Of a stretch of DNA of 64,000 nt, positions 12,034 to 61,804 are shown in pieces. The stretch comes from Microthyrium microscopicum (taxonomy: Eukaryota), in assembly GCA_010405405.1 (NCBI GenBank), contig MU004235.1, forward strand, positions 1,254,538 through 1,318,537. The letters run 5' to 3'. Made by a program: the position numbers and the translations under genes. Position 1 is the stretch's first letter. Each line of letters opens with the position of its first letter. The notes beneath the pieces were generated by a model, which saw only the letters and a list, made by a program, of their open reading frames with translations, was not told where the DNA came from and did no database searches.

Positions 12034-13669
12034 ATGGGTATCTTCTATCCAGCAGCTGTGGCAGCTGTAGTGCTGGGCACCGTATACTCCATCTGGACGG
12101 TCATATATCGTTTATACTTTGATCCTTTGGCGAAATATCCCGGTCCTCTTCTAAACCGAATCTCTCCTATTCCTTCTATCATATCTTTGCTCAAAGGCCG
12201 CATTGCTTTAGATGTCAAACGCTGGCATGATCAATATGGCCCAGTGATCCGAGTCACTCCTACCGAGCTGTCATTCAATAGCGTAGCAGCATGGGAAGAC
12301 ATTTATGGTCATAGGCAAGGCCTCAAGAACATGCACAAAGGTACGAAGATTTCCAGTGTCTTCTTGAATTTGAGAGCCAGAGAACCAGTTGCTAATTAAA
12401 AGAATCTAGACCCTGTTCACGTTGGATCGGTTGCGCCTCTTGCCGGAGTATCGACGTTGACAATGGCGAATGATGATGATCATGCACGACAAAGACGTGC
12501 TTTGGCATATGCTTTCTCGAATAAAGCGTTGCTAGAACAAGAGCACATTGTCCAGGGATATGTTGACTTGTTGCTCGAAAAGATGACAGCTAAGCAAACT
12601 GCTGGCGTAGACGTGAACCTTGTGGATTACCTCAACTATACGACTTTCGATATTATCGGCGACCTTGCATTCGGTGAGCCATTTGGCTGCCTCTCAGCTG
12701 AGATGTTTCATGATTGGGTCTCTCTTGTTTTCGAAACCATCAAAGTTGGCGCACTGGAACAAGCAACAAGACGTCTGGCAACAGCCGGAGGATCGTTTCA
12801 GACATTTTTGGTAAACCGAATCCCACAGTACATGAGAGACTTGCGAGTGAGCCACTTGACTCGAAGCCGAGAAAAGGTTCTGAAGAGACTAGCACAAAAG
12901 GATCTTGAGCATCGCGACTTTATCTGGTACATCTTGCAACAACAAAAAAGACATGATCTCAAGCAAGACGAGATCATTGTCAATGGTGCTCTTTTCATCG
13001 TTGCAGGTAGCGAAACCACGGCCAACCTACTTTCTGGACTCTTTGCTAGACTCATCTGGAACCCTGACAAGTACGCGAAATTAGTCGAGGAACTCCGCTC
13101 CAACATCAAAGATCCAGCGGACCTGGTTAGCGAGAAACTCAAAGAACTTCCGTACATGAATGCTTGTATCGAGGAGGGATTGAGAATTCACCCACCTGTA
13201 CCAGTCGGTCTACTGCGAACTGTTCCCAAAGGAGGTGCCTATATTGATGGAAATTTTGTTGTTGAAGGCACTTCAGTCGCTGTGAACTCATGGGCGGCTT
13301 GCCACAATCCTGTCAACTTCAAAGACTGCGACAGCTTCATACCGGAGCGCTGGATTGATGAGAAATATGCCAGTGATCAAAAGAAGGCCATGCAGCCATT
13401 CAGTCTAGGTCCAAGAGGTTGCATTGGACGCCATCTTAGCTACATGGAGATGAGAGTCATTCTCGGACGCCTTCTATGGAACTTTGACATTGTCAGCACT
13501 GATGGAGCCTGGAAGTGGAACCCGGAAGGAGAGTTGAAGCATATGCGGGCTTTCAACACCTGGGAAAAGCCGGAGTTGATGATCAAACTGTAAGTCATCC
13601 TTTGTGGATCGGATGTTTGAAGCGAAACTAACACATGTCTCTAGTGTGCCAGTTGTTCACAATAAGTGA
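12034..13669 (+). CDS. Cytochrome P450 (CYP60/CYP65-like), 3 exons
   Basis: N-terminal TM, AGSETT, EEGLR, PERW, FSLGPRGCIG; introns about 12341-12410 and 13590-13644. Confidence 0.92.
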
Positions 13670-14266
13670 GAAACGAGAAATGAATACTGTGATGGTAAAC
13701 ATGCCATATTGAATTCCTGAGGTCTTCATCGCATGTGCTAGAGAAGGCTGACACTGAGGATCTGATAGCTACCTAATTCTAAATTACGTGCTTGGCCTCT
13801 AAGCTACCTATGTAGAATAACATCTTCTTAACAGATTAAATAATCAACTATATCAATATCAAATCAACGGCAGTAAAATTAACAGTGGTTCTATCTTGAG
13901 AGTACCCGGATATAACGCGGAGAAGATAAATGTTATACAAGTCAGTCACAGCTACCACAGCCTTGCGGCATGATTCAATCATGAGAATCGTCTGGAACAT
14001 CAAATCACCCACAAATTGAGGAAAACCACCCCGCTTTGCCTATGACACTATATGTGGACCTGCAGTGATGATCAGATGCTCTTCAACCCATGGGGAGAAG
14101 GAATCTGGAGTCAAGGCGGAAAAGTAGTCCCGTCTTGGACTCCAGCTATTGTCAAATAATAGGCTGCAGGTGAGTTGTATATGATTATTTTTGTGGTACA
14201 AAAGTGAGAAAAAATCAACACGACTGCTTAACTTTTACTATTTCAATTGTCAATCAATCTTTTATC

Positions 14267-15841
14267 ATGGCGTTTCCATTCTCAAAGTCAAAGCTCCCAG
14301 AGCAGCTGTTCATCAATAACGAATATGTCAACGCCAAAGGCACAAAGAAGCTCACGCTCATAAACCCTCGAGATGGATCCCTAGTCTCGAAAAACTGCCC
14401 GATTGCAGACGAACAAGATGTAAACATTGCTGTTGCAGCTGCAGAGAAGGCACTACCCGCATGGAAGAAGATGGCCGATACAGAACGACGAAATATATTG
14501 GCCAAGTTTGCAGATCTGATAGAGAAGCATTCGGAAGAGCTATCTGAGCTCACACGAATCACACTTGGAGCTCCATATGGGGCTTTTGGAAAGTTTGAGG
14601 TCGGATTATGCGCAGAGGTTGGTCGATTCGTGAGAAATTGGGACATTTGAGTACTGATAACCGCTTTAGGCTTTTCGGTATTACTCTGGTTGGATCGGAA
14701 AGCTTGGTGGTGAATCATGGCCCGCACAAGATGGATTCATGAAGATTGTCCGGGTTGAACCTTTGGGTGTGACTGCTGGAATTGCTCCATGGAACGGTCC
14801 AGTTGGAACAGTGGGTCTAAAAGCTGCACCATCACTAGCAGCTGGCAACTGTTTCATTCTGAAGCCTTCAGAGAAAACACCATATGGCTCCCTCGCCCTT
14901 GGACATCTTGCCAAAGAGGCAGGTCTCCCGCCAGGCGTATTTCAAGTTCTCAGTGGAGATGGACCGACCACGGGGGCGCTTCTTGCTAGTCACATGAGAA
15001 TCCGTAAGATCAGTTTCACCGGAAGTATACCTACTGGCAAGAAAATCCAAGAAATGGCAGCCAAGAGTAACCTCAAGAGAGTCACACTGGAACTCGGAGG
15101 AAAATCTCCAGCTGTCATCTTTGACGATGCCAATCTCGAAAATGCAGTCTCCTGGACTGCCAACAATATCACCGCAAACACTGGACAAGTGTGCTTCGCC
15201 GCTAGCCGAGTCTACGTACAGGAAGGGATCTACGATAAGTTCATTGCAGGCTACAAACAAGCCATGGAAGACAAGAGAAATGCAGTGGGCGACCCGGAAA
15301 AAAAGGAGACTACCATTGGTCCACTGGTTGATGAAGCCCAGTTCAAGCGCGTGTCTGGCTTCATTGAACGAGGTCAAAAAGGTCAGGGCAAGCTACTAGT
15401 GGGCGGGCAAAGAATTGGAGATACTGTAAGTCGACCTCGCAGTGCTGTGATAAATTCGAAAGGTGCTAATCAAGTTAGGGATTCTTCATTGAGCCAACCG
15501 TTTTCGTCGACGTCGAGGAGAACTCTGAAATCCACAACGAAGAAATTTTCGGGCCAGTCTCTGTGGTTAGGAAGTTTAAAACAGAAGAGGAGGTTATGAA
15601 GATATCTAATGATGTCGAATTTGGCCTGATGGCGGGCGTCTTCTCTCAGGATATCAACAAGGCATTGAGAGTTGCAGCTGAATTCGAGGCTGGTATGGTG
15701 GGTGTCAACTGCATCTCAGCCATGTTCTTGGGACAGCCATTTGGAGGGTACAAGCAATCTGGACTTGGAAGAGAGGGAGGAAAGGAAGGCATGCTCGCCT
15801 GGATGGACCACAAGACCGTGTTCATCAACACCACATACTAA
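14267..15841 (+). CDS. Aldehyde dehydrogenase, 3 exons
   Basis: PWN, KPSEKT, FTGS, LELGGKSP, GQVCFA, PFGGYKQSG. Confidence 0.93.
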
Positions 15842-15939
15842 GCGTAATAATTCCAGTGCAGTTATCAGATACTTAGTCATAACTCAGATCTTTCATAAAT
15901 ATTGGCACAAGGGGACTAAGCTACTGTATGATCTAGGCC

Positions 15940-16689
15940 TCAGAAGAATGCTTTCTTCTCGCCAAACGACTTCAAATTCTTATATTCGGCCGCCACTCCA
16001 GTGTCTTTCAAAGAAGAAATGTCAACCTCCTTGTTGAACTCCATAACCACAAGAAATTTGGGAGGCGCTTTCAGCCCTCCCTCACCTGGGGCTAGTCTAT
16101 TCTGTCTGGAAAAATAGTTCTTGTACAAGCTCACCCTAATAGCTTCTTCCTGCAAAGGAAGCTTCTTGATAATTGATTCTGCCTTGCTTGCGTCGTCTCC
16201 CTCCACATCAAAGCAAAGAGTGACTACATGGCTGGGTACGGCTGTGCACATTTAGACTCAAGATCTGGACAACATACAATCGCACTAACCTGCGCGTTTC
16301 GCTTCTCCTTTCAAGTGTTGGACATTGGAGTAGTAGCGAGTATCAAAGTCTGCGAAATTGAAAATGGGCCCGCCGTCAGGTAGAAGGTTGTCATTGACAG
16401 GGATAGATCTGAATGCATCGGAGGTCAAAAACGACATGTCTTCCATAGGATATAGAGCTAAATAAGGACGTTCAACCTTTCCTGGAGTGACTGTCTCATA
16501 GCGAAAGGCTGATTTGATTCCTTGAGGTTTGGTGGCGAAGATATCGGCGATATGTACGTCCTCATACCATTGAGCAAACAACGCTGGTGGCATGGATTTG
16601 GCATCCGTGATTTTGGAGTTCACGTAGAGAATTCCTGGCCCAGAAGTGGAGGCAATGTTGTAGTTCGGAAATTCAGCTGAGCCAACCAT
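15940..16689 (-). CDS. Hypothetical protein, EthD-like dimeric alpha/beta barrel candidate, 2 exons
   Basis: WYEDVHIADI and RPYLALY motifs; intron 16242-16289 joins two ORFs in frame. Confidence 0.6.
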
Positions 16690-17277
16690 GATGAGGATTT
16701 GATGAAGAACTTGAAGATGGCAGTTGAAAGGATAACACAGATCTTGGAAATTGAAAGTGGTTGATCAATGAATTTGATGACTTTCGCTGTAAGTTTGTAA
16801 TGCAAGGCTTTTGTACTCCTGAATTGAAATTCCAGTATTACTTGACATATGTTCCTTCATGTCATGGGAAGCAACTAGGTTTATTGACCAAAGTAGCCGT
16901 TACCCGTCCCGGCCAAACACGTTGAATTTCTCCAGTTGCTTGTTCCTCGTACCCCAGATTATTGGATAGGTCTTTTACTATTAAACTCGGTAGCTTCAAG
17001 CCGATGTTGGAAAGGGTTTACAAGATGGAAACCTTACCCGGTCCAGGTATGGGCCACTTTTCCGCCTCTTGGCCAACCACCACTAAACACAACATGTGAA
17101 ACTAAATCAACATTTATGATGAGATCAATACTTGATACATACAACTAACTAGATACTGCCGCGTTATCCGTTTTTTTCGGCCATACTTGAGTCAAATATC
17201 GCTGTAACACCAAATTTGTCGACACATCCTATGAAGATCAATCACAAAAATCAAAACCGAAAACCAGAACCTGAAAA

Positions 17278-18521
17278 ATGAGTTCAGCTCCGAAAGTCGC
17301 TTTGGTGTTTGGTGCCAGTGGGGTAACAGGATGGAGTTTTGTCAATGAGATATTGAATGACTACCCCAAAAAGGGCATCTGGGGAAAGGTATATGCGCTT
17401 ACAAACAGACCCTTGAAAGAAGAGACCACCATTTGGCCCAAAGATGACAGGCTTGAAATCGTGTCTGGGATTGATCTTCTCAAAGGCAGCCAAGAAGACT
17501 TGGAGAAAGAGCTTAAGAGTAAAATCAAGGATATATCAAAAGTCACACACGTCTATTATCTTGGTAAGCTCACCAGCGAAATTTTAAAGAAAAGAAAGAA
17601 GCTAAATGTTTCGCAGCTTACAAGGCAAACCCTCATGACCTCAAGGCAGAATTAGACGATGCCGTCGCCATGTGGAGTCGCTCAACTATTGCCATGGACC
17701 ATATTAGCCCCAGTCTCGAATTCGTTATCCTCCAAACCGGCGCCAAAATGTATGGCTGCCATCTTCTCGAGAACCATCCCACTGACTACATCCACCCACC
17801 ACTTCACGAGAATCTCCCGCGACTCAAACAGCCTTATCACGATCAACTCTTCTACCACCCACAGCTGGACTGGGCTCACGATTACGCCAAAGGCAAGGCG
17901 TGGAAATGGTGCGACACACGCCCCGACATTATCATCGGCTTCCACCCGACGCCCAATTTTTACAGTCTCGGGCAAGTCCTCGGCATCTACATGACGCTCT
18001 TCCGAGCTGTTGAAGGCGCTGGCGCAGAGTGCCCATGGCCCGGCACTAAACAAAGTTGGGTAGCAAAGAGCCACGACTCTAGCAGTGATATGATTGCGCG
18101 TCAGACACTACATCTGTCACTGACAATTGATGACAAGTACAACGGCACAGGATTCAATGTTGGAGATGCAAAGCAATGGTATACATGGGAAACCAAGTGG
18201 CCGGCAATCTGCAAGTATTTCGGACTCAAGGGCGTCGGACCGGAAAGCGGGAAGGAGGGCACGGAGGTGAGAGCGTATATCAAGGAACATTTGGCGGAGT
18301 GGAAGAAGATAGAGAAGGAGCATGGCCTACAATCTGGGTTTGCGGACAGCGAGATGGTGATCCCTGGGTTTGAGTTCTTTTTGATCACGCAGTTCGATTT
18401 CGATCGTCAGTATGATATGACCAAGATGTATGATGTTGCTGGGTTCAAGGAGGAGCGAACTCCAGCGCAGACTTGGGGTGGAGTTTTCGACAGGATGAGA
18501 AAGGCAAAGATCATTCCATGA
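17278..18521 (+). CDS. SirQ-like / PRISE-family NAD(P)-dependent reductase, 2 exons
   Basis: VFGASGVTGW, LQTGAKMY, LFYHPQLD, TRPDIIIGF; intron about 17564-17616. Confidence 0.85.
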
Positions 18522-25900: not shown

Positions 25901-26941
25901 TCACAGATCCGAATAATCATATTTCCTCCCCCGTCCTCTGCCCTGCCTTGCAGACCCCTGCCTCCCTCGTCCCTGCGGCCTCTCCCTCTCCACGGCCGCA
26001 CCTGCCTCCACCGCCCCCATCGCCTCGCTCACCAACCGTGTCGCCTGTGCAAATATCCCGCCCATCACTCCTCCTCCCTGCCCAGACGAAGTCCCTGTCT
26101 CACGCATCTGCACTACACGACTACTCGCGCTGGTGCTCACGCGTCCACCTGTACGAACGCTGGTGGTTGCGCGGAATGCGGCGTTCACTTCACGGACTAC
26201 ATGGGTGGCGGCTGAGGCACCGCGCGATATAGCTTGTACGTCTTGCATGCTGACGCCGCGAGGGAGGGGGACGCGGTAGGAGCCTTTGAGGGCGAGTTGG
26301 TCTGGTTGGTTAGTAGTACGTGGGATGGTTTCGATCTCGGATTCAGTGTCGCTGTTGGGTTCGGAGATTGAGGTGGGATATTGCGTTACTGGGACGAGGG
26401 CGGCGGAATGGGTTGCGCGGGAGGCGGGCGTGCTTTTTGATGTTGTTGTTGCCGGACGAGTTGGCGTGTGGGTGGTGGTAGTCGTGCGCAGCTCATGAAC
26501 GTCGGTGACTGTTGATTCGAGACGGTAGTTTATCTCTTCGACGCGCGATTCGAGGATGGAGACGCGCTGGATTACGGTCTCGTCGGGGTTTGTGGAGAGT
26601 TGGGCGGTTTGAGGGGTGGAGGCGCTGCGGACGGCAAGTTTGCGTGGTTTGCGGCGTCGACGGCGCGATGATGCACGAGAGGAATTTGGTGACTGAATGC
26701 TGAGATCCTCTATAGTGGGATTCCTTATTGGTATAGGCTCTTGAGCTTCTGGTTCGCTTTCAACCTCTTCGACCACTGGACCGATTTGTTTCTGCTCTTG
26801 TTTGGACTCTTGTTTCTGTTCTTGTTTTGGTTCTTGTATGGCCGGTGTTTCTGATATTGATGCTGTAGGCTTGCGAGCTATTTTGCGCGGTCGCCGACGA
26901 CGCGCTGGCGCTGGCGATGGGTCTTGCTTTGATGTCTCCAT
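25901..26941 (-). CDS. Hypothetical low-complexity/coiled-coil protein, 346 aa
   Basis: Long open ORF with biased composition and QE(P/Q/S)K repeats; no family recognised. Confidence 0.65.
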   Translation of the reverse strand: METSKQDPSPAPARRRRPRKIARKPTASISETPAIQEPKQEQKQESKQEQKQIGPVVEEVESEPEAQEPIPIRNPTIEDLSIQSPNSSRASSRRRRRKPRKLAVRSASTPQTAQLSTNPDETVIQRVSILESRVEEINYRLESTVTDVHELRTTTTTHTPTRPATTTSKSTPASRATHSAALVPVTQYPTSISEPNSDTESEIETIPRTTNQPDQLALKGSYRVPLPRGVSMQDVQAISRGASAATHVVREVNAAFRATTSVRTGGRVSTSASSRVVQMRETGTSSGQGGGVMGGIFAQATRLVSEAMGAVEAGAAVERERPQGRGRQGSARQGRGRGRKYDYSDL

Positions 26942-27629
26942 TGTTTATAGGTACAGAAGTAAGTCAAACTAATTCAGACTAACAACCGTTAGAAGTTACG
27001 GCTTGTGGGCTTTGATGCAGCATGGCGAACTAGAACAAAATAACTGGGCACGTTGATATTGCGGCTGACGTCACAAGGCTGAATTGCCACGCGAGGGACA
27101 GGGGTCAAACATGCCATAAGGCTGACTTCTAACTACCACGTTTCCCTTAGGACAAATTAGGCTGTCAAGATGAACGCTGACTCAACTCTACATCTCGAGC
27201 TTATTTAATTGAATTAGGCCTCGAAATCAAAACATAGGCTGTTTTGCAATGGCGTACCTGGCTGTCGCGGCTATCATCACCACCTGTAATGACAGTCTAT
27301 CACGGGGATATCAGTAACTGTCTGTTCATGAACAAGACTTATGTTATTGTGGTCAGAGTCTTCTGAGGGCTCAAGCTAACTGCGTCCAAGATTTCACGAA
27401 ATCTGACACTCATTATATATGTGAGTCTAATGTTCAGATGATCCATGACACACTTCTAGCGATGACTTGTTCAAATACCCCAATGCAGTAAAATGTACGC
27501 CTTTTCCTATAAAGGAGAGAAATCATCATATCTTCATCAACTTTCTGGATCAATGGTAAACTGCAGTCGGAAATACAGAGCCTTTAATATCCCCATACTT
27601 GTAAATAAAAACCTGGTCAAGCAACTGAA

Positions 27630-28202
27630 ATGGATCAGTATGACCTCTTTCCAGCTGAAGTATCTCCACCTTTCAGCAATTGTCTCACAAATCTAAGATC
27701 CATGGCTCTCTTACAAGATGAGATCGACACTCTTGCTCAGAAGCATCAAATGGACATACCCAAGTCACAAGCTGGTTGCACTCGTCCGAATATAAACCTT
27801 ATCTGTGCAGCACTAGAGTATGAGATACTCCCACTTCTAGAACCGTACAATCGTAATATCCCATGGGTTGCTGATCCTCTTGAGGCTATGCCAAACTATG
27901 TAGAAAATAGTAAGTACCCTGAACAATATGTCAAACCCAAATGATACTAAGTCAGCGACGCTACAGCTATGAATCATATGTGTGCCACAAGAGATGCGCT
28001 GGATCGGAGTGGATATTCTCAGAGCATTGATGGGCGCGAAGATTTAAAATATGAGGAAAACCGTCAGATATGCGAACAGCAAGCTCGCGCAAGCGCTGCC
28101 GCTGTAGAAGTACAGTGGATCCAAATTAAGCAAGTGATGATGCATATTTTAGATGGAAAGCGTAGAGAGAAGCACATGAATAAGGATTCTTACATTCTTT
28201 GA
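27630..28202 (+). CDS. Small helical orphan protein, 2 exons
   Basis: GTAAGT 27910...TACTAAG...CTACAG 27966 joins two ORFs in frame; TATAAA near 27509. Confidence 0.5.
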
Positions 28203-28936
28203 TATAACATTCACGGGCTTTGCTCTGAGTCTGTGAGGACATCCGTAACTTTTCGCTCCATTCTTTTATTCTTGGGGTTCGTGCTTTGTCACTTTATTTA
28301 ATCACTCCTGGCAAGTTTATCGTCAGGGCTAGACAAGAAGATGAGTTATCATTGCTTGGAGTAACCTCCGATTGAACACAAATCTCAATATTATTTCTTT
28401 TGACACTTTTACTTTTGACCAGTAAAGAACAGACTGCACGCAAAACAATGAATCTCAATGGCTTCTAAAATCGAAATTCAAAACCCATTCCCTGTTACAA
28501 TAGCTAAAGATCTGTCATTGCCAGGTTAACAAAACATTACATTACATCTCAGTTAGTAGAAGCAAGAGTTGTGTGACGAATAAGCTATCATGTGGGAAGT
28601 GGTTGAATACTTACTTAGTATTTAGTTTGACCAAAGATATATAGAGCTACAATCAAACCAGTAATCTAGGATTGCCTTGAGAAGACACTTGGGCCTTCAG
28701 TAGATTCTTCCTCACGGTGAAGAATGGTAAGTCATTTTTTTGATTCTTTCTCAATTCAATTGGGTTGACATTAATTAAGTATGTTGTGCACCGTGAAAAC
28801 CCACTTGTCTGGCTGATATATAAAGAGGGCCCAACCCGCTGAATGATGCAAAGCCAGTTCAACAGGAAGCCGTATCTCTCAAGAGCCTACATCCGACTGA
28901 AGTCTACACTAAAGATTACTAGACAACAACTTCAAG

Positions 28937-29421
28937 ATGTGTGACCCGGGCAATGATGTCCTATCCACTATCATAGCCGATTTAAGCTTGACAGCATCGT
29001 ATAGAGCCAAGATTGAACTGTCTTTGCCAGACATATCAAGTAAAAGACCGCACAACGATATGTTCATATGCTTTAGAGAAGAAATTGTCAATCTAATAAC
29101 CACACTCCACGCCAAAGTCAACCCAGTGTTTTATGCTGGAATGGTAAATGCTGTAATGTTGGAAGATCTTCATAAACTGGCAAATTTTGTCAAGGAGAGT
29201 AGGTTATTCAGGCAAAACAACTGACATGACTTTAAACTTATTGAACCGCAGTGAACTCAGAATTGTGGGACCTACAGAAGCAACTTTCTGATTGTGGAGA
29301 TCCGGTTCCAGGCATGGTCAGACCTTACTGCCAATCCGCATTCAAGAAATTCATGCCAGTGAGAAAAGGTGTGGATTCTCTTGTACAGCACGCATCCTCA
29401 GCTTATATTGGCATGTTTTAG
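28937..29421 (+). CDS. Small helical orphan protein, about 143 aa, 2 exons
   Basis: Intron GTAGGT 29199...CCGCAG 29251 gives an open second exon ending SAYIGMF*; TATATAAA upstream. Confidence 0.55.
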
Positions 29422-29895
29422 GACAGTCAGTGATATATGCACTCAATGTAGCCAATCAGCAACGAGATCAATCAGCCTTACAGCCTCATGGTAAACGTCA
29501 TGCTCAGCCTTATGCTCAGCCTTATACCAATTATATCATGAAGTATAGTCTCTTATGTGTCAAAACAATCTTCTATACGTCACATCAAGAAGCAGTATTA
29601 CCAAAGTTTCAGTCATTAAGTACTTGTTTGATTCCAACAATCTGCCAAGAAATCAAGTGATAAACCATACAAGTCTTCCCTAGTACACGATGCCGCACCC
29701 TGATCGACCGAGAGAATTTCAAGCAAAACAGTAAATGATCTCGCCCTTATTAGTACTGTCGCCTAAACAAAAACTTAAAAAGGCAGCAAGGATAGCCACA
29801 AGATTTGAGAATCTTTGGCATTCCAACCGAAACCAAAACCTAAAAGAGTGTTCAACCATCTGTGTAATGTGCCTCTTGATACAAAGTCCCGGCTT

Positions 29896-29911
29896 CTACA
29901 AGCCAGTGTAG
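29896..29911 (-). promoter_or_regulatory. 3'-UTR hairpin CUACA-CUGGCU-UGUAG (SRE-like), copy 1
   Basis: About 40 nt after the stop of the 29950-30648 gene; conserved in 3 paralog loci. Confidence 0.55.
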
Positions 29912-29949
29912 TAAGCTTGAAACGCTTCAGGTCTTCGTCATGGTTCTAC

Positions 29950-30648
29950 CTAGGAAGCTGAACGCCGTGCCTCGACCGATCTTACGCTGTGTACTTCACC
30001 CACCCCTAGGGGATAATAGCTGTTGATCATCCTACACTGCCATACTAGACGGTACCAATGCTCTCTGGCCCCGTTGTGTGGATCATTGAGAGCATCTCGA
30101 ATATCCTCTACCCATTGGCGCACGGCTTCTTGAGCTTCTTCGTCTTCATCGTAGCCTTCCTCCCCTAGAACGTTTTAGAACCTCCTGTTTTCTAGAAACA
30201 TTCCACAATTGTAGATTGAGAAGCTTACCTAGTAGGTCTCTAATGGTTTCGTAAGCATTCCAGATAACCTCGCCATTTTCCTCGACTAGATTGATTCATG
30301 AGTCAATGATTTGTGCTAATCGTCCTTTCACACATGAGTACTCTTACTTTTTCTCATCCATTCCTCGGCTTCATTGGCAAGTTCCCCTAGACGAGTCCAG
30401 TTCTGAGAACTGCCTTCAGGAATTGCAGGTACATATGCACGAGCTGCATGCATGATAAGATACACGAAAGTGAGTTGATCCTTCCGATCCCATATTGTGC
30501 AGTTGAGGGGGATTCCTGCCGCCCTGAGAGTGGCTTGTAGACTATGGATTTGTTCTATCCGGGATCTCATATGTACATACTGGTCGTCAACCCCTTTCCA
30601 GGCTGAAACGACACCGTTCCGGTAGTCTATCCAGGACAACACTGGCAT
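29950..30648 (-). CDS. Orphan family member A, about 190 aa, 3 exons
   Basis: Two GTAAG..TAG introns give a continuous ORF ...GAREHWYRLVWQCRMINSYY...RSAS*. Confidence 0.65.
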
Positions 30649-30718
30649 CGTTATGATCGATATAGTAGGAAGCTTGTTATTGGAAATGGTTTCCTAAGTA
30701 GGTGTCAGGCTATTCGAA

Positions 30719-30965
30719 TTATGATTGTTTACAAAGATGTAATTGACGTGCACCAGGCACGTATTGAAGTATTGATGTTTTGGGAATGATGAATCAAGAG
30801 AGCAATGAGAAGAGCACACATTATTATACTACATTGGATTTGAATAGTCGTTTGATAGTGGTAACTACTTTCCTTGATCGTTTGGCCGTGGTGTTTACCT
30901 TTTAGAAGATAGACACTCATTCTGACCTCTGCTCTACAAACGTTGGTGTCAACACTGATCAGGAA
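30719..30965 (-). repeat. Conserved upstream promoter/5'-UTR block, copy 1
   Basis: Shares ATGATTGTT, TGCACCAGGCA, a TATA-like box and AGTCGTTTGA.TAGYGGTA.CTAC with 32857-33090 and 34738-34910. Confidence 0.85.
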
Positions 30966-32185
30966 GCACCCAGAAAAGAACATCCATGTCACTGGAAAAC
31001 GCACTTGGGTCGCTTTATGCATCTACGAAGGTTATTGAAACGTTTGGCTCTACCTATTAGACAGTTGTTCATCACAGAATCCGCGATATCCGTTTTTGTA
31101 GCTCTCAGTATCGATATATACATGGGCAAACTCTTATACCTTCGAAATTCAAGCTCTTCAGACTGTACGGCTCGGCCTGAAAGAAGACCTTTTCGGTTTT
31201 TGTCTTATGTCGGAAGACGAAGTTTGATTTGTGGTCAAAGCTATTGGAAAGGGACATGCCTCTGATACTGAGACTGAGAAGCAAGAACTTCTGGAACAGT
31301 GGAAAGTACAGAACATCTACTCGAGGAAGGTGAGTGCATAATCCTCTGATTATGAGCAGGAGAGAGTACAAGCTGATCAAGATTATCCACTAGTCGTACG
31401 ATACGTGCACTGCGCGCTCAGAGAAGTTAAGCGTACTTGTGTCAATCCTGAGCAGGTTAAAGAGTGGCTTATGACCAGCAGGTGGTATTGATATCACTCA
31501 ATGGGGGCTGCAAAAGACATGAGTTGTTGATTAAGATGACATACCTTGGCACCTGTTAGATGGCAACAGAAGTATCAATGGATCCGGTGATGTAGTAACG
31601 AAGCAGTCAAAACTAGTTTGAAAACATCTTGTTTCCCGTAGTGAATTCTACTCTGTTTTGCCTATGTAGATAACTCATGGTTGCAATATGGCTAGCCTGA
31701 GCAGTATCTGTGATATGTTATTATCAAAGATTAGCTTTTTAGGCGCTTATCTTGCGGAAGCATTTATGTGTGGTTTTCTTGGTTATGAGACTTAGGATTA
31801 CGTTGTTCTACCACTACATAGAGACAATGGTAAGTTCAGGTTGTTTTCATATACCGTCATTTTCGTAACTGAGCCAACTTGACATAATGAGCGATCAATG
31901 GCGAAGGCCTTCCCTACACTAATCGCATAGAGCTTCCACAATTTCCAGACGAAACATGAACAGGAGACATCATCAGCCTTGATATTTTCACCGTAGAAGA
32001 TAGACGAAGACCTAGTGATGCCCTCATAAATCCAACGACAAAGGAGTGATCGACAGTAAAAGAAACTCACCGCCTAAATTTGGAAGCACCAGTGAACACC
32101 ACATTAGAAGCAGAAAAGGCATAATCAAAAGCAAAGGAGTGCCCAGAAAATCAATGTCTCCTACCGTACATAGCAAATGAAGCTT

Positions 32186-32201
32186 CTACAATCCGGTGTA
32201 G
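32186..32201 (-). promoter_or_regulatory. 3'-UTR hairpin CUACA-CCGGAU-UGUAG (SRE-like), copy 2
   Basis: Same stem as copies 1 and 3; loop differs but still fits CNGGNN. Confidence 0.55.
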
Positions 32202-32301
32202 TGCGCATGAAAACATCATTCGGAACAGTTCCTTCTGCCTCAATCCTTGGGTCGTGTACCGCGACAAATCACCTTGTGAAGGCGAACTTTTGCTCGCATA
32301 A

Positions 32302-32771
32302 TCATCCCCTCCAGGTGCGTTCAATTTCTTTTGCGGCTTCAACAGCGAGTGCCCAATGCTCTTTGGTCCCGACTGTATCGTTTTCAATCTTGGCGACATC
32401 GCGATTAGGCTTTCCTGCCTCCTCTAGTATGGAAGTCACCCCTAGAAGGGCTATATTTGAACCTTCAATTAGCATGTTGCTCTAAGTCAAATTCATACTT
32501 GGATATACATACCTTCCCGAACGCGGTCACAAAGCGTAATCTCGTCGCCGCCAATATAGGCATTGGAATGCTTTCCCTGCTTAATAATTCGGTCTACTAA
32601 TGCGAGCTCGTAGGGATCCAATATCAAGGTTATGCCTGCTTCATGAAGTATACCCAAAGTTGTGGGGATATCTGTCATTCTGAATATGAGCTGAAAGAGG
32701 TTGAGATCCATGTTGTGCCATGTCGCTAGCTGAGGTGGTTCTGGATAGTCTGGTGAGCCTGTGGAGGCCAT
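32302..32771 (-). CDS. Orphan family member B, about 140 aa, 2 exons
   Basis: Intron GTATGT...GCTAAT..AAG; exon 2 reads ...EEAGKPNRD...GTKEHWALAVEAAKEIERTWRG*. Confidence 0.65.
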
Positions 32772-32856
32772 AAAATTGCCGACAAGAAATGGTATCGTGC
32801 GAGGGCTGTCAGCTTGATGATACTGGTGTAGAAAGAAATAATAGTGTTCTGCAGGT

Positions 32857-33090
32857 GATGATTGTTTTCAAATTTGTATTTGATGTGCACCAGGCACGAA
32901 TTGCTGTATTGATGTTTAGAAGTATTGTTATGTTGTGATGAAGGAAATATGAGTAAGAACAAGAGATCACATTATTTTTATACAGAATTGAAGCTGGACA
33001 GTCGTTTGAATAGTGGTATCTACGTTCTATGAGATAGACGCTGATTCTGGCCTCTGACCAGCAAACGTTGATACCAACACTGTTCATGAA
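32857..33090 (-). repeat. Conserved upstream promoter/5'-UTR block, copy 2
   Basis: Aligns by eye with 30719-30965 over about 230 bp. Confidence 0.85.
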
Positions 33091-33466
33091 CCATTTGTAG
33101 ACACCGGAGTAAACCAGCTCCCACACGTCCCGTTGAGCGACCTTATTGCCCCTTTCTAAAGAAGACATATGTGATACTTTTCCGGTCCAATTAGTAGCTC
33201 AAACGAAGCCTAAGTAACAATCTCTTCCAGGCTCGCTATGACGATTTTCACTGTTACTTGGTCTCCTTAATCGTTGGCCTCATCCTGTCTTCACTCTTGC
33301 ACATAATCATGCCGTCACAAGTGCATTGATCCCCGCTGCGACTGGAACAAAAGCGGACAATCAGCGATGTATTATGCCACAATCAGATTTACATACCTTT
33401 GACAAGGTGACATTCCAAGAGCTTCAAGCGTTCGGCCAAACGAGCGGGCTCCGTGTCAGTGTTACG

Positions 33467-33545
33467 TTTGCCTTTTAATGCTTCAGTTTGCCTTTTAATG
33501 CTTCAGTTTGCCTTTTAATGCTTCAGTTTGCCCTTTAATGCTTCA
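33467..33545. repeat. Tandem 20-bp repeat TTTGCCYTTTAATGCTTCAG, about 4 copies
   Basis: Three perfect units and one unit with a single mismatch. Confidence 0.95.
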
Positions 33546-34064
33546 AGCAGGGTCTTCAACCAGGTCATCTTGTTGGTCACATCGTCTTTGTCCATGAGGA
33601 TAAGGTGGCCGTAACTGTAGCTGCCAACAAGGCGTATCGAGCAAGCTCCGTTCACTTCAATCATCCCGAGGCAACAATGTATATCTAGATGATACCTTTT
33701 TCTTGAAGCTAGAGTCCAGTGGGACAATCACGCCGTTGAAGCTTCTTATTCGAGATATCTTGTTACAAAGATGTGAATTTGATTGTGCATTCAAGCCAAA
33801 AGAGCGGCCAACCATGAAAGTTTGCCTGTACGATCTGCACAAAGCTTTCACAATCTAACTAAACGCAATAAAGAAAAGGATTATTCAGCCATGAATCTCT
33901 GTCTCTGTAAGGAATACTCTGTACGTACTCTTTACAGAGTAAGCCGACCTCCTCAATCGCTCCCGCATATCAAGAAGATATCAACCGTGCCCGCGTGCCT
34001 TGTACAAGACCATCGAAACGAGCCAACTTGATCCTTCTTCTCGGTAACAAGATAAATACAGCTA

Positions 34065-34080
34065 CTACAAGCCAGTGTAG
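34065..34080 (-). promoter_or_regulatory. 3'-UTR hairpin CUACA-CUGGCU-UGUAG (SRE-like), copy 3
   Basis: About 60 nt after the stop of the 34143-34651 gene; stem extends (UA/UA, AGCU/AGCU). Confidence 0.55.
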
Positions 34081-34142
34081 TAAGCTTCGAAAACCTCATT
34101 CCATGTCCATTCATGCTTTGCTAAGCTTGTCATTTCCACAGA

Positions 34143-34651
34143 TCATGTACCCTTGATATCATCTCCCCACTCTATATTGATCCTCTGACACTCCTCGACG
34201 ATCGGCTGCCAAATTTTCTTGAATTCCTCGTTAAGCCGCTTCATTTCTTCATCATTGGGTTCAGGCTTGCCCGCCTCAGCCTGCATGGCTGTGTGAATTT
34301 CCTGAGCTATCAATGAACCATGAATCAGTGGATTGACCCCTTAGGAATCTAATAGTATTCGATGAGGCATACCTTTCTCGAACAAGCTCGGAGAAGCGGG
34401 ACTTGAGCGTTCAAGTTTATCCTAATGGAAGGCTCGCGTTCCGCGCGATAGGTCCTGTAAGTTTCGTATCCATTCATTACGATATTGTCTACTGTCTGTA
34501 CGTCGTCCTTTATGTCGCTGTAGTCAGAAGTTTTGGGTGTCTCGTAAAAGATACCCCCCTCCGTGTTGAGGAAGAGCTTCCAGGCGTGGGTGATGACTTT
34601 CCAATTGGATGGCTCGGATGGCTCGGATGGCTCGGACGGCTCGGATGCCAT
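34143..34651 (-). CDS. Orphan family member C, about 145 aa, 2 exons, N-terminal SEP repeats
   Basis: MASEPSEPSEPS...RACSRK|EIHTAMQAEAGKP...KIWQPIVEECQRINIEW..; acceptor choice (CTCAG at about 34302) is uncertain. Confidence 0.55.
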
Positions 34652-34737
34652 GTTTTTAGCTATAGAAAGACGGTCCGGGAATGTTTTGTCTGGGTTGAAT
34701 CGATGGATATAGAAAGCGATAATCGTATTGTTCAAGT

Positions 34738-34910
34738 AATGATTGTTCTCAGAGTTGTCGTAATTGATATGCACCAGGCATATATTGCAGTAGTAAAGTA
34801 AGTAAAGTGTTGATGTGTGGTGATTAAAGAAACAAGAGTAAGATCCAGACAGCACATATTCTTATACCACATCGGACCTAGAAAGTCGTTTGATAGCGGT
34901 AACTACTTGA
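34738..34910 (-). repeat. Conserved upstream promoter/5'-UTR block, copy 3
   Basis: Same motifs in the same order as copies 1 and 2. Confidence 0.8.
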
Positions 34911-35514
34911 TTGAATGTAAACGGTGTTTCTGGTATTCGCGAAAAGGCTGTGCGCCTAGCTGGTTTGAATATAGCGTTGGATAGTCACGTAATGGGTTTG
35001 GAAAGATGTTTGACTTTGATATCTTAGGGGGTAGTTTCATGTTGCATGGCATTTGGGGGTGAAAGCTGAACATGTTATCTCAGAATGAATGTTTGCAACT
35101 ATAAGATAATGCTATGGTTACTCTAAACCAGCTTTGCTCATCAATGGCAGACGAAAAAATGAACTGAATATCGCTGTGGCCGAGGCTTACTGTAGCTAGC
35201 TACATGGAGAAGATATTCACAGGACGTTGGCGAATCTGGCAGCCATTCCCCCTTTCTAGTGTGTTTACACTGAAGTGTCGTAATTTCCAATGACCGCCAC
35301 GGCGATTGGACTGCTGGTCAGAACGATGAGATAAGAGCATTCCATCAAAGATATATTGTCTAACGATGCTATGTATCCGACGTATCCAAACGTCTCATGC
35401 TATATGCAATGCAAAACCGAAATATCTAACCACCCATGCAATCACAAAACCACCAGCCTCTGCTATACCCGCTTCCATATCAAAGAGGCAGCTCGTCATC
35501 GGACCACGCAGTCA

Positions 35515-56654: not shown

Positions 56655-58960
56655 CTACAACTTCGCTTCAACTCCAAGCCCAGTAAGTATCTCCTCTACC
56701 GCCTGATTTATAACTACTCCAGTCTTCTGTACCTGTGCAATGTTAGCGAGTAATCAAGGTGGAAAATGATCAAGATTACCAGTGGTTGCTGCATCATCAA
56801 ATAGTGCGTCCCTTCTACTACTATAGTCTGCACCGTAGATCCGAGCAGCTTCTCCCATCCATTGGGTCCAAAAGAGCTCTTTTCAGCAGCTCCCCAGCCT
56901 GCGCCAGGCATTCCACCATCTTTGAAGCGTTGCGGCATTGATCCACCCTTTTTCATGCATGCGAGTAACTCTTTTGCAGCCGTAGTGTTAATGCTTTGCA
57001 TCTCAAAGTTGGTGTAGCGTGCTAGAATAAGAAAGGTCTTGAACGGAACAATTTCTTGATGCCATGCCTTGCCACGGTATTTGCACAACATGTTGTGGCT
57101 CATGACAATATTCTGCCTACTTTTCAATGGGACATCTATGCCTCTCACCTGATTGCTCGCTGTCACCAGCTCCAAGTTCACCTGCTCCGCACCGAACATG
57201 ATTGATGGACTTGCTGAGTCGATTATGATGAGACCGATTACTTTTCTCCCAGCCAAAGAAAGAAGTCTTGAGACTTCATAAGCCATGGTGCCACCAAGTG
57301 ACCATCCACCAAGCAGGTAAGGGCCGTGAGGACGAATCCGAATAATCTCTTCCAAAATCATTGGCGCAACCTCTTCAATGGTGTGGTCATCGGAGGGATT
57401 GTCTACAAATGGAGACGGTAGAGCATACACCGGAATATGAGAGTGGAACTGCGGTAGCTGCACGTATGAAGTGGCGGATCCTTCTCCGTCGGCAAGAAGG
57501 AAAAAAGCTGGTTGCTGGGATTCTGAGGTTCCCTGCAGAAGGAAGGAATACACCTTGGGCTCCAACCGCCCAGGCTGTTCGGGTGAAACTGTAGAACGCA
57601 TAGGCTGGACTACCGACGGAAACATCTTCTCCAACTTCTCTTTCATAGCGGTCAAGGTTGGATATTCACGAAAGCACGTTGTAGGAAGTTCAGTACCTGT
57701 TTGCTCTTTGAGCACTCGTAAAATAACTACGGCTTGCATCGAGCTTAGCCCAAGTTCCTCGAAAGTTTTGTCTGGAACTCCGGCTTTGAAGAGATCTTGG
57801 ACCTTTATCTGAATTTGTCTGGAGAGTGTATCGACAAAGACTTTGAATGGATCCCCTGTGGCAGCGTCGACTTTGGAAGCTCGATTGCGATCTTGTGGTG
57901 CCTCTATGTCTTGAGACATTTCAAGTTCCATATCAAGTTCAATCCCCATTTTCATGAGCATGGCAGCACATTGAAAGAATGTGGTTCTCGAGTCCTGTAC
58001 ATCGTCGATGGTGTGCAAAATGTATTTCTGATCCACTTCCAAAGTTGCTCTCACAAAGCTGCAACATGCTGATCCGGGACCCAGTTCAAGCCACACAGCC
58101 TCCTCCTCCGGCTTTGCCCAACTTCTGGTAGCTTTAAGTGCTTCGGAGAATTGCACAGGCACTCTTTCCACGGAAGCAGTATACTCGTAAGTAATAATTT
58201 CCGCTTCGGTCACTACTTTGCCCAAGACTGTTGAGGCGATAGGAATCCTTGGTCGATTGAAAGTCAGAAGTTTTGCAGTTTTTCGAATTTCTTCCATTGC
58301 TGGCTCCAGCTGCCGGGTGTGGTAAGCATATTGCATTGGCAATTCGACGGTTTCAATGCGATTTGCCATTAGAGCTGCTCGTAATCGACGAATCTTTCCG
58401 GTTGGTCCGCCCACAACAATGCTCTTTTCGGAGTTGTAACAACAGACGTCGCAGAAGTCCCATTTGTGTCCTACGACCCGAATGACCGTGTCCACAGTTG
58501 CTCGTATGGCGAGCATAGCCTCGTCGTATGGTTCGCACCTACGTTCGATTATTTGACTTTGTCTACCGACAAAGAAGAACGTGTCGGTCAAGGATAAGAC
58601 GCCAGAGACACACAGAGCTGCAATGGAGCCTATGCTGTGTCCGATTACCATATCAGGTACCAATCCACGTCTTTCCAATTCCATAGCAAGAGCAACCTCC
58701 ATGGCAACAGTTCCGATTTTGACGACGATGTCATCAGGAGGTAACGAATCAGCCCCTATAAGCCATTTAATGAATGAAGGCAATCTCAACGACGTCACAA
58801 TCGTTTCCATCTCATCCAGAGATGCTCGAAAGGAAGTCGAGACTTGATACAGTTCTTTGGCCATCCCAGCATGATGAGAACCGAGGCCAGAAAACATGAA
58901 AACGACTCTGCTACCTTTGGCTGCAGCAAAAAGTGTCTTGCCAACTACAGGTGAAGACAT
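56655..58960 (-). CDS. KS-less PKS-derived tridomain acyltransferase-ACP-thioesterase; predicted C-terminus -AKL
   Basis: AT: FSGLGS, GHSIG, YAYHT, WLELGP; ACP: FEELGLSS; TE: LADGEGSATSY, GGWSLGG, GTHYLMM. Intron 56733-56779 (GTAATC..GCTAAC..CAG) gives ...LGVEAKL*. Confidence 0.85.
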
Positions 58961-59977
58961 TATCCAAAATTGAAGGGTTGATCAGCCAAGCTATTACTCT
59001 GCGTATCAGAAAGGACAAATCTTGAAACACAGTCTGATATCGTTCTTTGCTTTAAGAAAATTGTTACTGTTTCTCGTTAGTGAAGAGGATTCAAGCCAAG
59101 TTCAATGACATGATACCAAAAGGTTCGAGCTGCTAACATATAACTGGGCCAACAAACTGCGTTAGAGATGATGACGAGAGTGAAACCGGTCTACCATTAT
59201 TATTGTATGTACTGCTATTTTCGGGCACTCTCAAATATGTGGGCTTCCCCGAGGAGCTTTCACATTTACAACTCTCGCCTAGGTCAAGTTTGACCCTGTT
59301 GCATTCGCAGATCTTTTCTGCAAGGTGACACCATCTGATAGATGTGATGTGCTGGCCAACTGATAGACAAAATAAATCGCGTAACCCCATCGACTTCGAT
59401 AGCTCCTACACAACACGCTCTAGTATTAAGTACCTAGGTAATTTATTTATGATATATGGCGTCTAGATTAAGTATTTTATCGAGTGCGATAGAAATTATA
59501 ACACCTCTTCTTTAAAAGCGTTCGTAGGAGCCAGCGAAGTTGATGGATGAACGCCAGTTATTTTGTCATGCGGTTGCTGGCGAACAAACTGCAAAGGTCG
59601 TACAGAAATGATAAGCTTCACGGAGTGGAATCGGGCACTGAGATCTGCAAGCGCCTGCATATGCGTCTGCATTAGTACTCAAGTCCAGCTGTATCGGGTT
59701 TTCACTTGCGCAAAGTGATAATTTCTTTGTTCTCTGCATCGAGATACATAATATTTCCTGATTTACAGCCTTGGAATGATTGATCAACACTCAGCACTCG
59801 GACCATCCGCCTACCGTAGGCTATGCCTGGGCATGGGTTGGGTTGGGTATGGTATGGGTTTCGTAAGTTATTTTCAAAAGGGCCGTCGCACGCTATAGAG
59901 TAGTACTCAAGAAACTCAGATCTTTCCAAGGTTGACCCCGTGGTCGCGCTCATTGACTTAATCAATTCATTGATATC

Positions 59978-61651
59978 ATGATATCTCTTGTCGATCCAGG
60001 CGATGTCTTCTACTTCCTGCTTTGCAGTTTTGGGGTCTTTTTCACAATTAAGCAAGCGTTTGTTCAGATTCGCAGGCGTAAAATAAGGAAACGTCTTGGC
60101 CTTTTCAAAGCAAAGTCTTTACCTCTGCTCGACCCTTTTTTTGGAACAGATCTCAGCGTTACTATCTTCAACCAGATCAGGAGGTCTGAGTTGCTCGAGG
60201 GACTTGATAAAAGATTTCTTCGTTTCGGAAACACGCATTCTTTCCAGCTGGGTCTAACATCGATTGTTGCAACATGCGATCCCGACAATATCAAAACAAT
60301 TACAATGAACGCTATTGATTTCCCTGTTGGCGATGTCCGAAGAAAGGGGTTATCAATTTTACATGGTCAAGGTATATTCGCTGTCGAAGGATCCGACTGG
60401 CACCGATCACGCAGTGCTCTTCGTCCCAGTTTTACCAAAGGAAAACACGATGATGTTGCTGTTCTCGAAACTCACTTCCAAGATATGTTAAATCAGATTG
60501 CTCTAAGCAATTATTCCGTTGACATGCAAGATGTATACCACCGATTCACAATGAACACAGCAACCCAGTATTTCTTTGGTACATCACCTCGTGAAAGTGG
60601 TCAAGGGCGGCAGATTGAAAGGTTGCTAGAAAGCATTGACTATGTGAACCAGACGGTTTACTTGGCCCTTGTCTTTGGCAGTCATTCGCCTATATCACTT
60701 TGGAGATGGTGGCAAACTAAAAAGAAGATGAGGGTGATTCACGCTTTTGTTGATCAGCACGTCAAACGGGTATTGAGCCCAGACTTTAAATCTTACGAAG
60801 TCAACAACCGTCGTTACATCTTCCTAGACGAGCTTTCCAAAAGTGAATCGGGCAAAGACCCTATTTTTCTTCGAGACCAGGTTTTAACCAGTATGCTTGG
60901 TGGAAAAGATACCACGTAAGATCAGCCACTCTTTCTGGATTTATTTTTGACGTAGTTCCTAGGGCATCTCTTTTGACCCACGTTACCTTTGAACTAGCTA
61001 GAAATCCGATCATTTGGGCTAAGCTTCGAGTCGAAATCGGAAAGCTAGACTTGGAGTTGGTTGATATGAAAACGATCAGAAACCTCAAATACGTGCGATT
61101 CTGTCTATTAGAAGGTAAGTGATATAAACGTGGAGTGTTTCATGAGCTAAATCCTACTTGAAGCTTTGCGTTTGTACACCGTTGTGCCTATAAACATGAG
61201 AAGTGCAAGTGCGGACACGATGTTACCAGTTGGTGGAGGAGTAGATGGCAACAACCCAATTCAGATACCTAAGAATACAATACTCTGGCTGGGTATGTTC
61301 TCGATGCATCGTCGAAAAGACATATGGGGAGATGATGCAGATCAATTCAACCCGGATCGATGGGAGAATCTAGATCCAGGACCGGCATTCGTTCCTTTCG
61401 GGTCAGGACCTCGAACATGTCTTGGTCGTAAGTACAGCATTACTCTTGAAGAATTAATTACTCACATTTACTCAGAGCAATTCGCTTTTAATGAAGCCTC
61501 ATTTGCTCTTACAAGATTAGTGCAGACATTTCATGAACTTGAGCCCCTTTCCGATGCACCTTGGAAGGAGAAGGTTGCGATTACTCTTGGTTCAGGCAAC
61601 GGGTGTAAGATCAGGTTACATAGGTACACAAGTTCGGAGTTTGAACAATGA
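59978..61651 (+). CDS. Cytochrome P450, CYP52-like (alkane/fatty-acid omega-hydroxylase clan), 4 exons
   Basis: TCDPDNIK, GIFAVEGSDWHRSRSALRPSF, LRDQVL..GKDTT, DTMLPVGGG, FNPDRW, FGSGPRTCLG. Confidence 0.88.
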
Positions 61652-61804
61652 TTTGAATGTTGATTTTTAACAGATGGGATGTCGCTCAGATTGGAGTAGA
61701 CCCTATATAAATTAAAGAATGTATTCTGCTTAAAGTGCGCACAAGGAATGACGATATGGAAATTTTCTACATAGTAAATTAACAATTAGTTCCTATAGAG
61801 TCAT

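Follow-up and report, generated by a model that had tools for sequence, protein, structure and literature searches.

Background

Smaug recognition elements (SREs), known from the nanos and Hsp83 mRNAs of Drosophila and from the targets of yeast Vts1p, are the nearest known system to the element analyzed here, a conserved island of 25 nucleotides (nt) located downstream of the stop codons of three neighboring tandem genes, which we denote A, B and C, on the minus strand of a 64-kb stretch (hereinafter, the window) of the genome of Microthyrium microscopicum, a leaf-litter fungus of the Dothideomycetes. The proteins of the Vts1/Smaug family in yeast and flies recruit the Ccr4-Not deadenylase and lower mRNA stability or translation.

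The SRE is described as a CNGGN0-3 loop (tested as N0-4) on a non-specific stem, with CUGG as the best-performing start of the loop, a preference for G immediately 5' of the loop and an optimum at pentaloops (PMC4053848). The sites of Vts1 are hairpins of at least 4 base pairs (bp) with tetra- or pentaloops and a bias toward G:C as the top pair (PMC3045596; PMC2683727). Orthologs of Vts1 that contain the SAM domain occur in filamentous fungi, and in the rice-blast fungus M. oryzae, Vts1 is a substrate of Pmk1 that is needed for infection; the study reporting this calls Vts1 a protein of unknown function and, in its accessible part, names no RNA targets (bioRxiv 10.1101/2023.08.19.553964). More generally, the titles and abstract openings of the publications among the matches listed, supplements aside, contain no description of RNA targets of Vts1 in a filamentous fungus, and among the matches listed under the name Microthyrium microscopicum, none is about the locus of genes A-C.

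Results and discussion

A conserved island behind three tandem genes

The pattern CTACA-N6-TGTAG (CTACANNNNNNTGTAG) has exactly three matches in the 64,000 bases of the window, each of them downstream of one of the three tandem genes (Table 1); in 100 dinucleotide shuffles, the mean count was 0.03 and the largest was 1, so that none of the 100 reached three. A first-pass annotation of this DNA had described three hairpins with the loops CUGGCU, CCGGAU and CUGGCU on the minus strand, and the pattern count reproduces both their positions and their loops. The distance of 40-100 nt after the stop codon that was given there is roughly right and depends on the gene model: the hairpin of gene A follows at 38 nt after the TAG at 29952-29950 (alternative model) or at 70 nt after the TAA at 29984-29982 (annotated model), that of gene B at 100 nt after the TGA at 32304-32302 (predicted model), and that of gene C at 62 nt after the TGA at 34145-34143 (the frame similar to that of gene B) or at 160 nt after the stop at 34243-34241 (the splice form found in an RNA contig, see below).

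The conserved region is wider than the 16-nt hairpin with which it had been equated. When the best ungapped 25-mer common to the three 300-nt flanks after the stop codons was sought and compared with 200 shuffles, the result was the island GCNNACTACACYGGMTTGTAGWAGC, in which 20 of the 25 columns are invariant, compared to 11.2 +/- 0.6 in the shuffles (maximum 13; 0 of the 200 reached 20). Once the island was masked, the next-best 25-mer had 11 invariant columns of 25, that is, the chance level. The bases outside the hairpin (GC/GC) can lengthen the stem. Segment-by-segment pairwise alignments of the three units, scored against shuffled controls (z-scores in Table 1), give the same picture: the ends of the units are conserved, and the body is almost unalignable. 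The view that the surrounding 3' untranslated region (UTR) is poorly conserved holds as well, given that the flanks are at the chance level, with z of at most 3.2 elsewhere in the 3' flank against 11-13 for the island, which places the motif far above its neighbors. Judging from these comparisons, we consider it nearly certain that the island is a selected cis-element of this gene family.

Within the hairpin, the substitutions are confined to the loop and, as had been proposed, to its N positions: copy B differs from copies A and C at positions 2 and 5 of CNGGNN, and C1, G3 and G4 are unchanged in all three copies. The chance that two changes both land on the three N positions among the six is 0.2, which is weak evidence taken alone. 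The stem consists of 5 Watson-Crick pairs in each copy and is invariant at 10 of 10 positions, so there is no covariation that would speak for or against the structure.

No relatives of the island turned up elsewhere: metagenome scans returned no matches to the pattern of the island and none to that of the upstream core described below, and Rfam produced no matches at E up to 1 over positions 29500-35200. The listing of inverted repeats, with its minimum length of 8, does not report 5-bp stems. Two other identities of the island were considered and rejected, namely, the coding sequence of a plus-strand gene, because the flanking frames are unrelated, and a Ste12-like site next to the island (TGAAACA), which, as inspected by eye, is inconsistent across the copies.

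It is conceivable, in principle, that the island itself is functionless, being a remnant kept by chance or by local gene conversion, or else the terminus of a mobile element, such as the 3' hairpin of a Helitron. The tandem arrangement of the genes makes conversion possible, and units with conserved ends and a divergent interior superficially resemble non-autonomous elements. However, the shuffles exclude chance as the source of an island of this quality amid flanks at the chance level, and it is unlikely that conversion affected a tract as short as 25 nt in each of three copies. At the 3' terminus of a Helitron, a hairpin precedes the CTRR end by about 10 nt, and such elements have sharp conserved termini and many copies. 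In our case, the hairpin is not followed by a CTRR end on either strand, the upstream boundary of the conservation varies among the copies (the similarity between A and B extends about 80 nt beyond that with C, 30888-30968 versus 33013-33093, with 77% identity), the units carry spliceosomal introns at matching places, and the upstream core is present, according to nhmmer, in only three copies within the window. We regard a functionless island as very improbable.

Table 1. Features of genes A-C and their conservation; positions are those of the window, and the z-scores come from the pairwise alignments of the three units.
Feature	Position	Strand	Details	z-score
Gene A coding region	29982..30648	-	ATG 30648; annotated model P0001, hypothetical protein, 153 amino acids; alternative model extends to stop at 29950	
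Gene B predicted coding region	32302..32771	-	ATG 32771; 2 exons; intron 32442-32512 or 32451-32512, each in frame	
Gene C predicted coding region	34143..34651	-	ATG 34651; intron 34307-34372 spliced out in RNA contig	
3' island, gene A (25 nt)	29892..29916	-	hairpin 29896-29911, CUACA-CUGGCU-UGUAG (mRNA strand)	
3' island, gene B	32182..32206	-	hairpin 32186-32201, CUACA-CCGGAU-UGUAG	
3' island, gene C	34061..34085	-	hairpin 34065-34080, CUACA-CUGGCU-UGUAG; extendable to 10-bp stem with one bulge	
Upstream core, gene A	30700..30890	-	TATA-like GTATAANAAT; 5' hairpin 30747-30761, CGUGC-CUGGU-GCACG	17-18
Upstream core, gene B	32835..33030	-	5' hairpin 32885-32897, GUGC-CUGGU-GCAC, 4 bp only	
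Upstream core, gene C	34715..34915	-	5' hairpin 34768-34782, UAUGC-CUGGU-GCAUA; inside RNA contig	
Contig record 2 of run X1, spliced	33804..35145	-	1276 nt, 0 differences; covers 33804-34306 and 34373-35145	
Upstream core, about 190 nt				17-22
First exon				-0.3 to 2.6
Last exon				2.0
UTR ahead of island				0.2-3.2
3' island				11-13
200 nt past island				0.7-1.8

The genes behind the island

Judged by database searches, genes A, B and C are orphans that belong to no Pfam family and among which the sole homolog detected is gene A's own record (P0001, a hypothetical protein of Microthyrium microscopicum). The six exon translations hit no Pfam families at the curated cut-offs. The protein search with exon 1 of gene B yielded no candidate at all, gene B itself included, and the search with exon 1 of gene C yielded 36 candidates sharing words with the query, none of which reached E <= 0.01, so that gene C itself was missing as well. 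An exhaustive phmmer search of 1.84 billion representative sequences with exon 1 of gene A gave four matches at E <= 0.001, the own record and three repeat proteins; the latter were judged spurious as homologs. For the C-terminal part of gene A, the own record was the sole match in the protein search.

Among themselves, the proteins of genes B and C are 30% identical along 50 residues at the C-terminus (pairwise E = 4e-4), and the similarity of the gene A protein to either of them is not significant in pairwise comparison. A model of P0001 that AlphaFold2 built from the single sequence without an alignment is unusable, with a predicted local distance difference test (pLDDT) score of 42.6. Nevertheless, the three genes appear to be true paralogs and to encode proteins, because the intron positions match, the long open reading frames (ORFs) begin directly after the conserved leader, and there is similarity, albeit weak, at the DNA level around the last exon junction.

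Several features of the vicinity are recorded here for completeness. The N-terminus of the gene C protein contains an (SEP)n stretch encoded by a 9-nt tandem repeat of approximately four copies (34607-34651), and the spacer between genes B and C harbors a 20-nt tandem repeat of about four to five copies, three of them nearly identical (33446-33565). Farther away, a 12-nt tandem repeat (26786-26845) lies within a long ORF on the minus strand (25901-26944) without any Pfam family. Two regions, 56714-62986 and 12400-18521, bear signs of secondary-metabolism genes, namely, one ORF with the acyltransferase, carrier-protein and thioesterase domains of a polyketide synthase, as well as two P450s, one NAD_binding_4 reductase and one PRISE-like reductase.

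Transcription of gene C

Contigs from one public sequencing run (X1) cover part of the window. These contigs show neither the ends nor the strand of transcripts and can merge overlapping transcripts, and the classification of the run as RNA is a guess made by the tool. That guess is supported by three spliced joints, located at gene C and at the neighboring gene for an amino-acid transporter, where pieces of 66, 48 and 49 nt bounded by GT..AG are missing from the contigs. At gene C, the contig skips 34307-34372 (joint 34306/34373), with CT..AC ends on the plus strand, that is, GT..AG on the minus strand, and it is this orientation of the intron that places the genes on the minus strand.

The spliced contig (Table 1) spans the gene C coding region, the 5' core including its hairpin, and the 3' hairpin with 260 nt beyond, bridging the latter with more than 200 nt on each side. 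Hence, where this can be checked, the concern that the poly(A) site might lie upstream of the hairpin is not borne out: the contig passes the hairpin by 260 nt. The hairpin of gene C thus is inside a spliced RNA contig, although the contig alone cannot prove a single transcript or a 3' end. Genes A and B fall in a region (27203-33618) covered by no contigs of this run, which is uninformative with respect to their expression.

Compared with the C-terminal frame similar to that of gene B, the splice form seen in the contig (acceptor at 34306) is frameshifted and reaches a stop after 21 codons (34243-34241); the frame would be preserved by an acceptor at 34301, 5 nt beyond the one used. Possibly, gene C is in decay or uses alternative acceptors. 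The start of the contig precedes the conserved core by about 235 nt, and the contig carries eight ATGs ahead of the main one, so that there is either a very long leader or a merger of two transcripts in the contig.

The upstream core and a second hairpin

Upstream of the start codons, genes A-C share a core of approximately 190 nt that is about 80% identical, whereas their exons are near noise. The core includes the TATA-like GTATAANAAT, an invariant TCAAACGACT block and a hairpin in the 5' leader. The latter agrees with the contention of the first-pass annotation that each gene has a second hairpin with a CNGG loop: it is present in each of the three leaders, in the same, sense orientation, and its loops (CUGGU) match the tetra- or pentaloop feature of Vts1 sites. 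The outer stem of this hairpin is ACGUGC/GCACGU in gene A (30746-30762) versus AUAUGC/GCAUAU in gene C (34767-34783), so that there are two CG-to-UA changes on both arms with the pairing kept, and gene B has one arm changed (GCACAU). These paired changes could reflect compensatory selection or, alternatively, the decay of CpG on both strands; in gene C, the CG-to-UA change in the stem gives rise to an upstream AUG in the leader. A conserved upstream ORF in the core was considered and dismissed since the lengths of the indels are not divisible by three and the copies have no ATG in common. Likewise, pairing of the 5' core with the 3' island was rejected after inspection by eye, which revealed matches of 5 nt at most.

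The high conservation of the upstream core makes strong transcriptional co-regulation of the paralogs plausible and, with it, an explanation of the 3' island at the level of DNA. The island would then be a duplex palindrome, with the half-sites CTACA/TGTAG and a 6-bp spacer, that is bound by a dimeric protein co-regulating the paralogs or terminating their transcription. Half-sites that are fully invariant, at 10 of 10 positions, combined with a spacer that varies (two of the six positions differ in copy B) are the classic signature of dimer sites, and neither covariation nor G-U wobble pairs point to one RNA strand. However, if the island were a DNA site, C-GG would have been preserved in the sense orientation by mere coincidence, with odds of about 1 in 32 to 1 in 64, and this coincidence would recur in the 5' hairpin; furthermore, conserved factor sites downstream of a stop codon are unusual. 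It also counts against this possibility that no fungal factor is known to have a CTACA/TGTAG half-site. On balance, a DNA site seems quite unlikely.

Is the island an SRE?

Rather than a DNA site, we favor an explanation in which selection has maintained the island as a cis-element of the 3' UTRs in the mRNAs produced by the three tandem, lineage-restricted genes. Under this explanation, the RNA of the island would fold into the 5-bp hairpin, the outer G-C pairs would lengthen the stem, and the CNGG loop would be presented to a reader, for which the leading candidate is a putative Vts1/Smaug-family SAM-domain protein of this fungus; binding of such a protein would then repress genes A-C. The components of this explanation differ in strength. 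That the island acts as RNA is, in our estimate, rather probable. That it is an SRE-type site read by the Vts1/Smaug mechanism, with binding that is putative, is a more tentative proposition, suggested by the sequence and possible rather than probable.

The island matches the SRE description in two respects, both of them in all three copies: the loop starts with CNGG on the transcribed strand (CUGG, CCGG and CUGG), and the six-base CNGGNN falls within the length range of CNGGN0-3. If the loop sequence were irrelevant, CNGG would be expected at the 5' side of the loop by chance in about 1 of 64 hairpins (an arithmetic estimate). The occurrence of two independent conserved hairpins, both of which open with CUGG or CCGG in the sense orientation, is the strongest argument for the SRE idea. 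When stems of 4 bp are allowed, the window contains 25 hairpins with the SRE consensus, six of which are in the 5-kb gene cluster, all on the gene strand; these six fall into two groups of homologs, to which the 3' island and the 5' leader contribute three hairpins each.

Several observations weigh against the SRE reading. The loop is a hexaloop in all three copies, not a tetra- or pentaloop (CNGGN0-1), and it is closed by an A:U pair in all three instead of the preferred G:C, although the latter is a preference rather than a requirement. The first-pass interpretation of the element as SRE-like therefore stands only in part, that is, inasmuch as a conserved sense-strand island conforms to the broad SRE consensus, while the hexaloop and the A:U closing pair depart from Vts1 sites. 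The consensus itself is low in information: hairpins that fit it with 5 Watson-Crick pairs number 11 in the window versus 6.5 +/- 2.2 in 30 shuffles. The folding z-scores, at -1.2 to -2.0 for 28-nt pieces, are unremarkable, and the probability of the hairpin in the mRNA context, calculated with the partition function, is 0.01 for copy A, 0.19-0.69 for copy B, depending on the length of the flanks, and 0.81 for copy C. The low value for gene A is due to a competing 7-bp hairpin, CUGGCUU/AAGCCGG, which surfaced in a scan for bacterial-type promoters and terminators that is otherwise irrelevant to a fungus; the local fold of gene A retains the conserved hairpin, at -8.5 kcal/mol. In addition, the case is built on three paralogous copies from one genome and one set of contigs, whose RNA nature is the tool's guess together with the three spliced joints and in which no 3' end is seen. 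Finally, all 10 stem positions and the flanking bases are fixed although the neutral sequence of the paralogs has been randomized, so the constraint on the sequence is greater than recognition by shape, with its non-specific stem, would need.

This last feature would better suit an RNA element that is read by its sequence, in which case the palindrome is incidental or secondary. Such an element could be the UGUA upstream element of cleavage and polyadenylation, for which filamentous fungi possess a CFIm-like factor with Rbp35 as an auxiliary protein, or a site for another RNA-binding protein; for filamentous fungi, an upstream UGUA element and Rbp35 as a CFI-68-like factor have been described in a review (PMC12667328). 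The invariant part of the island includes UUGUAG in all three copies, a second UGUA is located 5-16 nt downstream in each (the background probability is 0.074 per copy and 4e-4 for all three), and the predicted failure of the gene A hairpin to form in the mRNA also favors reading by sequence. Nevertheless, the count of twin UGUAs was made post hoc and, when corrected for 256 tetramers, corresponds to about 0.1. The equally invariant complementary arm CUACA and the kept CNGG are left unexplained by UGUA. The gene C contig, moreover, goes 260 nt past the element rather than ending 40-100 nt after it, though contigs do not show ends. Altogether, an element read by sequence strikes us as not very likely.

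Returning to the SRE reading, we infer from the sequence features listed above that the hairpin may fold in vivo, that a Vts1-type protein may bind it and that genes A-C may be repressed as a result. The "double lock" of the first-pass annotation, with the encoded proteins being toxic or restricted to a stage, is pure conjecture. The most far-reaching version of the proposal would be that an orphan tandem family has kept only its regulatory shell, that is, the promoter/leader of about 190 nt and the 25-nt 3' island, each built around a sense CNGG hairpin, and that this shell represents the first Vts1/Smaug-type regulon to be recognized among filamentous fungi, with an element at either end of the mRNA and tight post-transcriptional control of fast-evolving, lineage-specific proteins; taken as a whole, this we consider unlikely.

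Should the element prove to be a working SRE, candidate RNA targets that carry a clear and conserved site would be available for the first time for a Vts1 of filamentous fungi, namely, the mRNAs of genes A-C. If, instead, it serves the formation of 3' ends or is a DNA site, it would be an ordinary family-specific regulatory motif. The locus neatly illustrates purifying selection that acts on untranslated elements alongside a protein body free to change and, as such, is useful for understanding how control over young or fast-evolving genes is maintained.

Comparison with known systems

The resemblance of the island to the SREs of flies and yeast is in the short hairpin of at least 4 bp and in the loop that starts with CNGG in the mRNA sense orientation; two of the three 3' copies have CUGG, which is the best-performing variant (PMC4053848). 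As in nanos, the hairpin would be in the 3' UTR. Each mRNA would, furthermore, contain more than one hairpin of this kind. Unlike the sites of Vts1 and Smaug, the island has a hexaloop, an A:U closing pair and a stem whose sequence is invariant among very diverged paralogs. In contrast to the SREs of flies, which are located mostly in ORFs, one of the two paired elements here is in the 5' leader, and in contrast to nanos, Hsp83 and the targets of Vts1p, the host genes are orphans of a Dothideomycete.

With the UGUA polyadenylation elements of the CFIm type, associated with Rbp35, the island shares the invariant UGUA, the second UGUA at 5-16 nt downstream and the position in the 3' UTR. It differs from them in that the conserved block is 25 nt long and palindromic, far beyond a tetramer, and in that the contig of gene C continues for 260 nt.

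A parallel to the organization of the family as a whole comes from the toxin genes of cone snails, which form a family with conserved non-coding ends and hyper-divergent coding sequences. Genes A-C differ from these in having no signal peptide evident by eye and only three members in the window, but, as in the toxin genes, the upstream core and the 3' island are conserved, the exons have z-scores of about 2, and the proteins are barely alignable.

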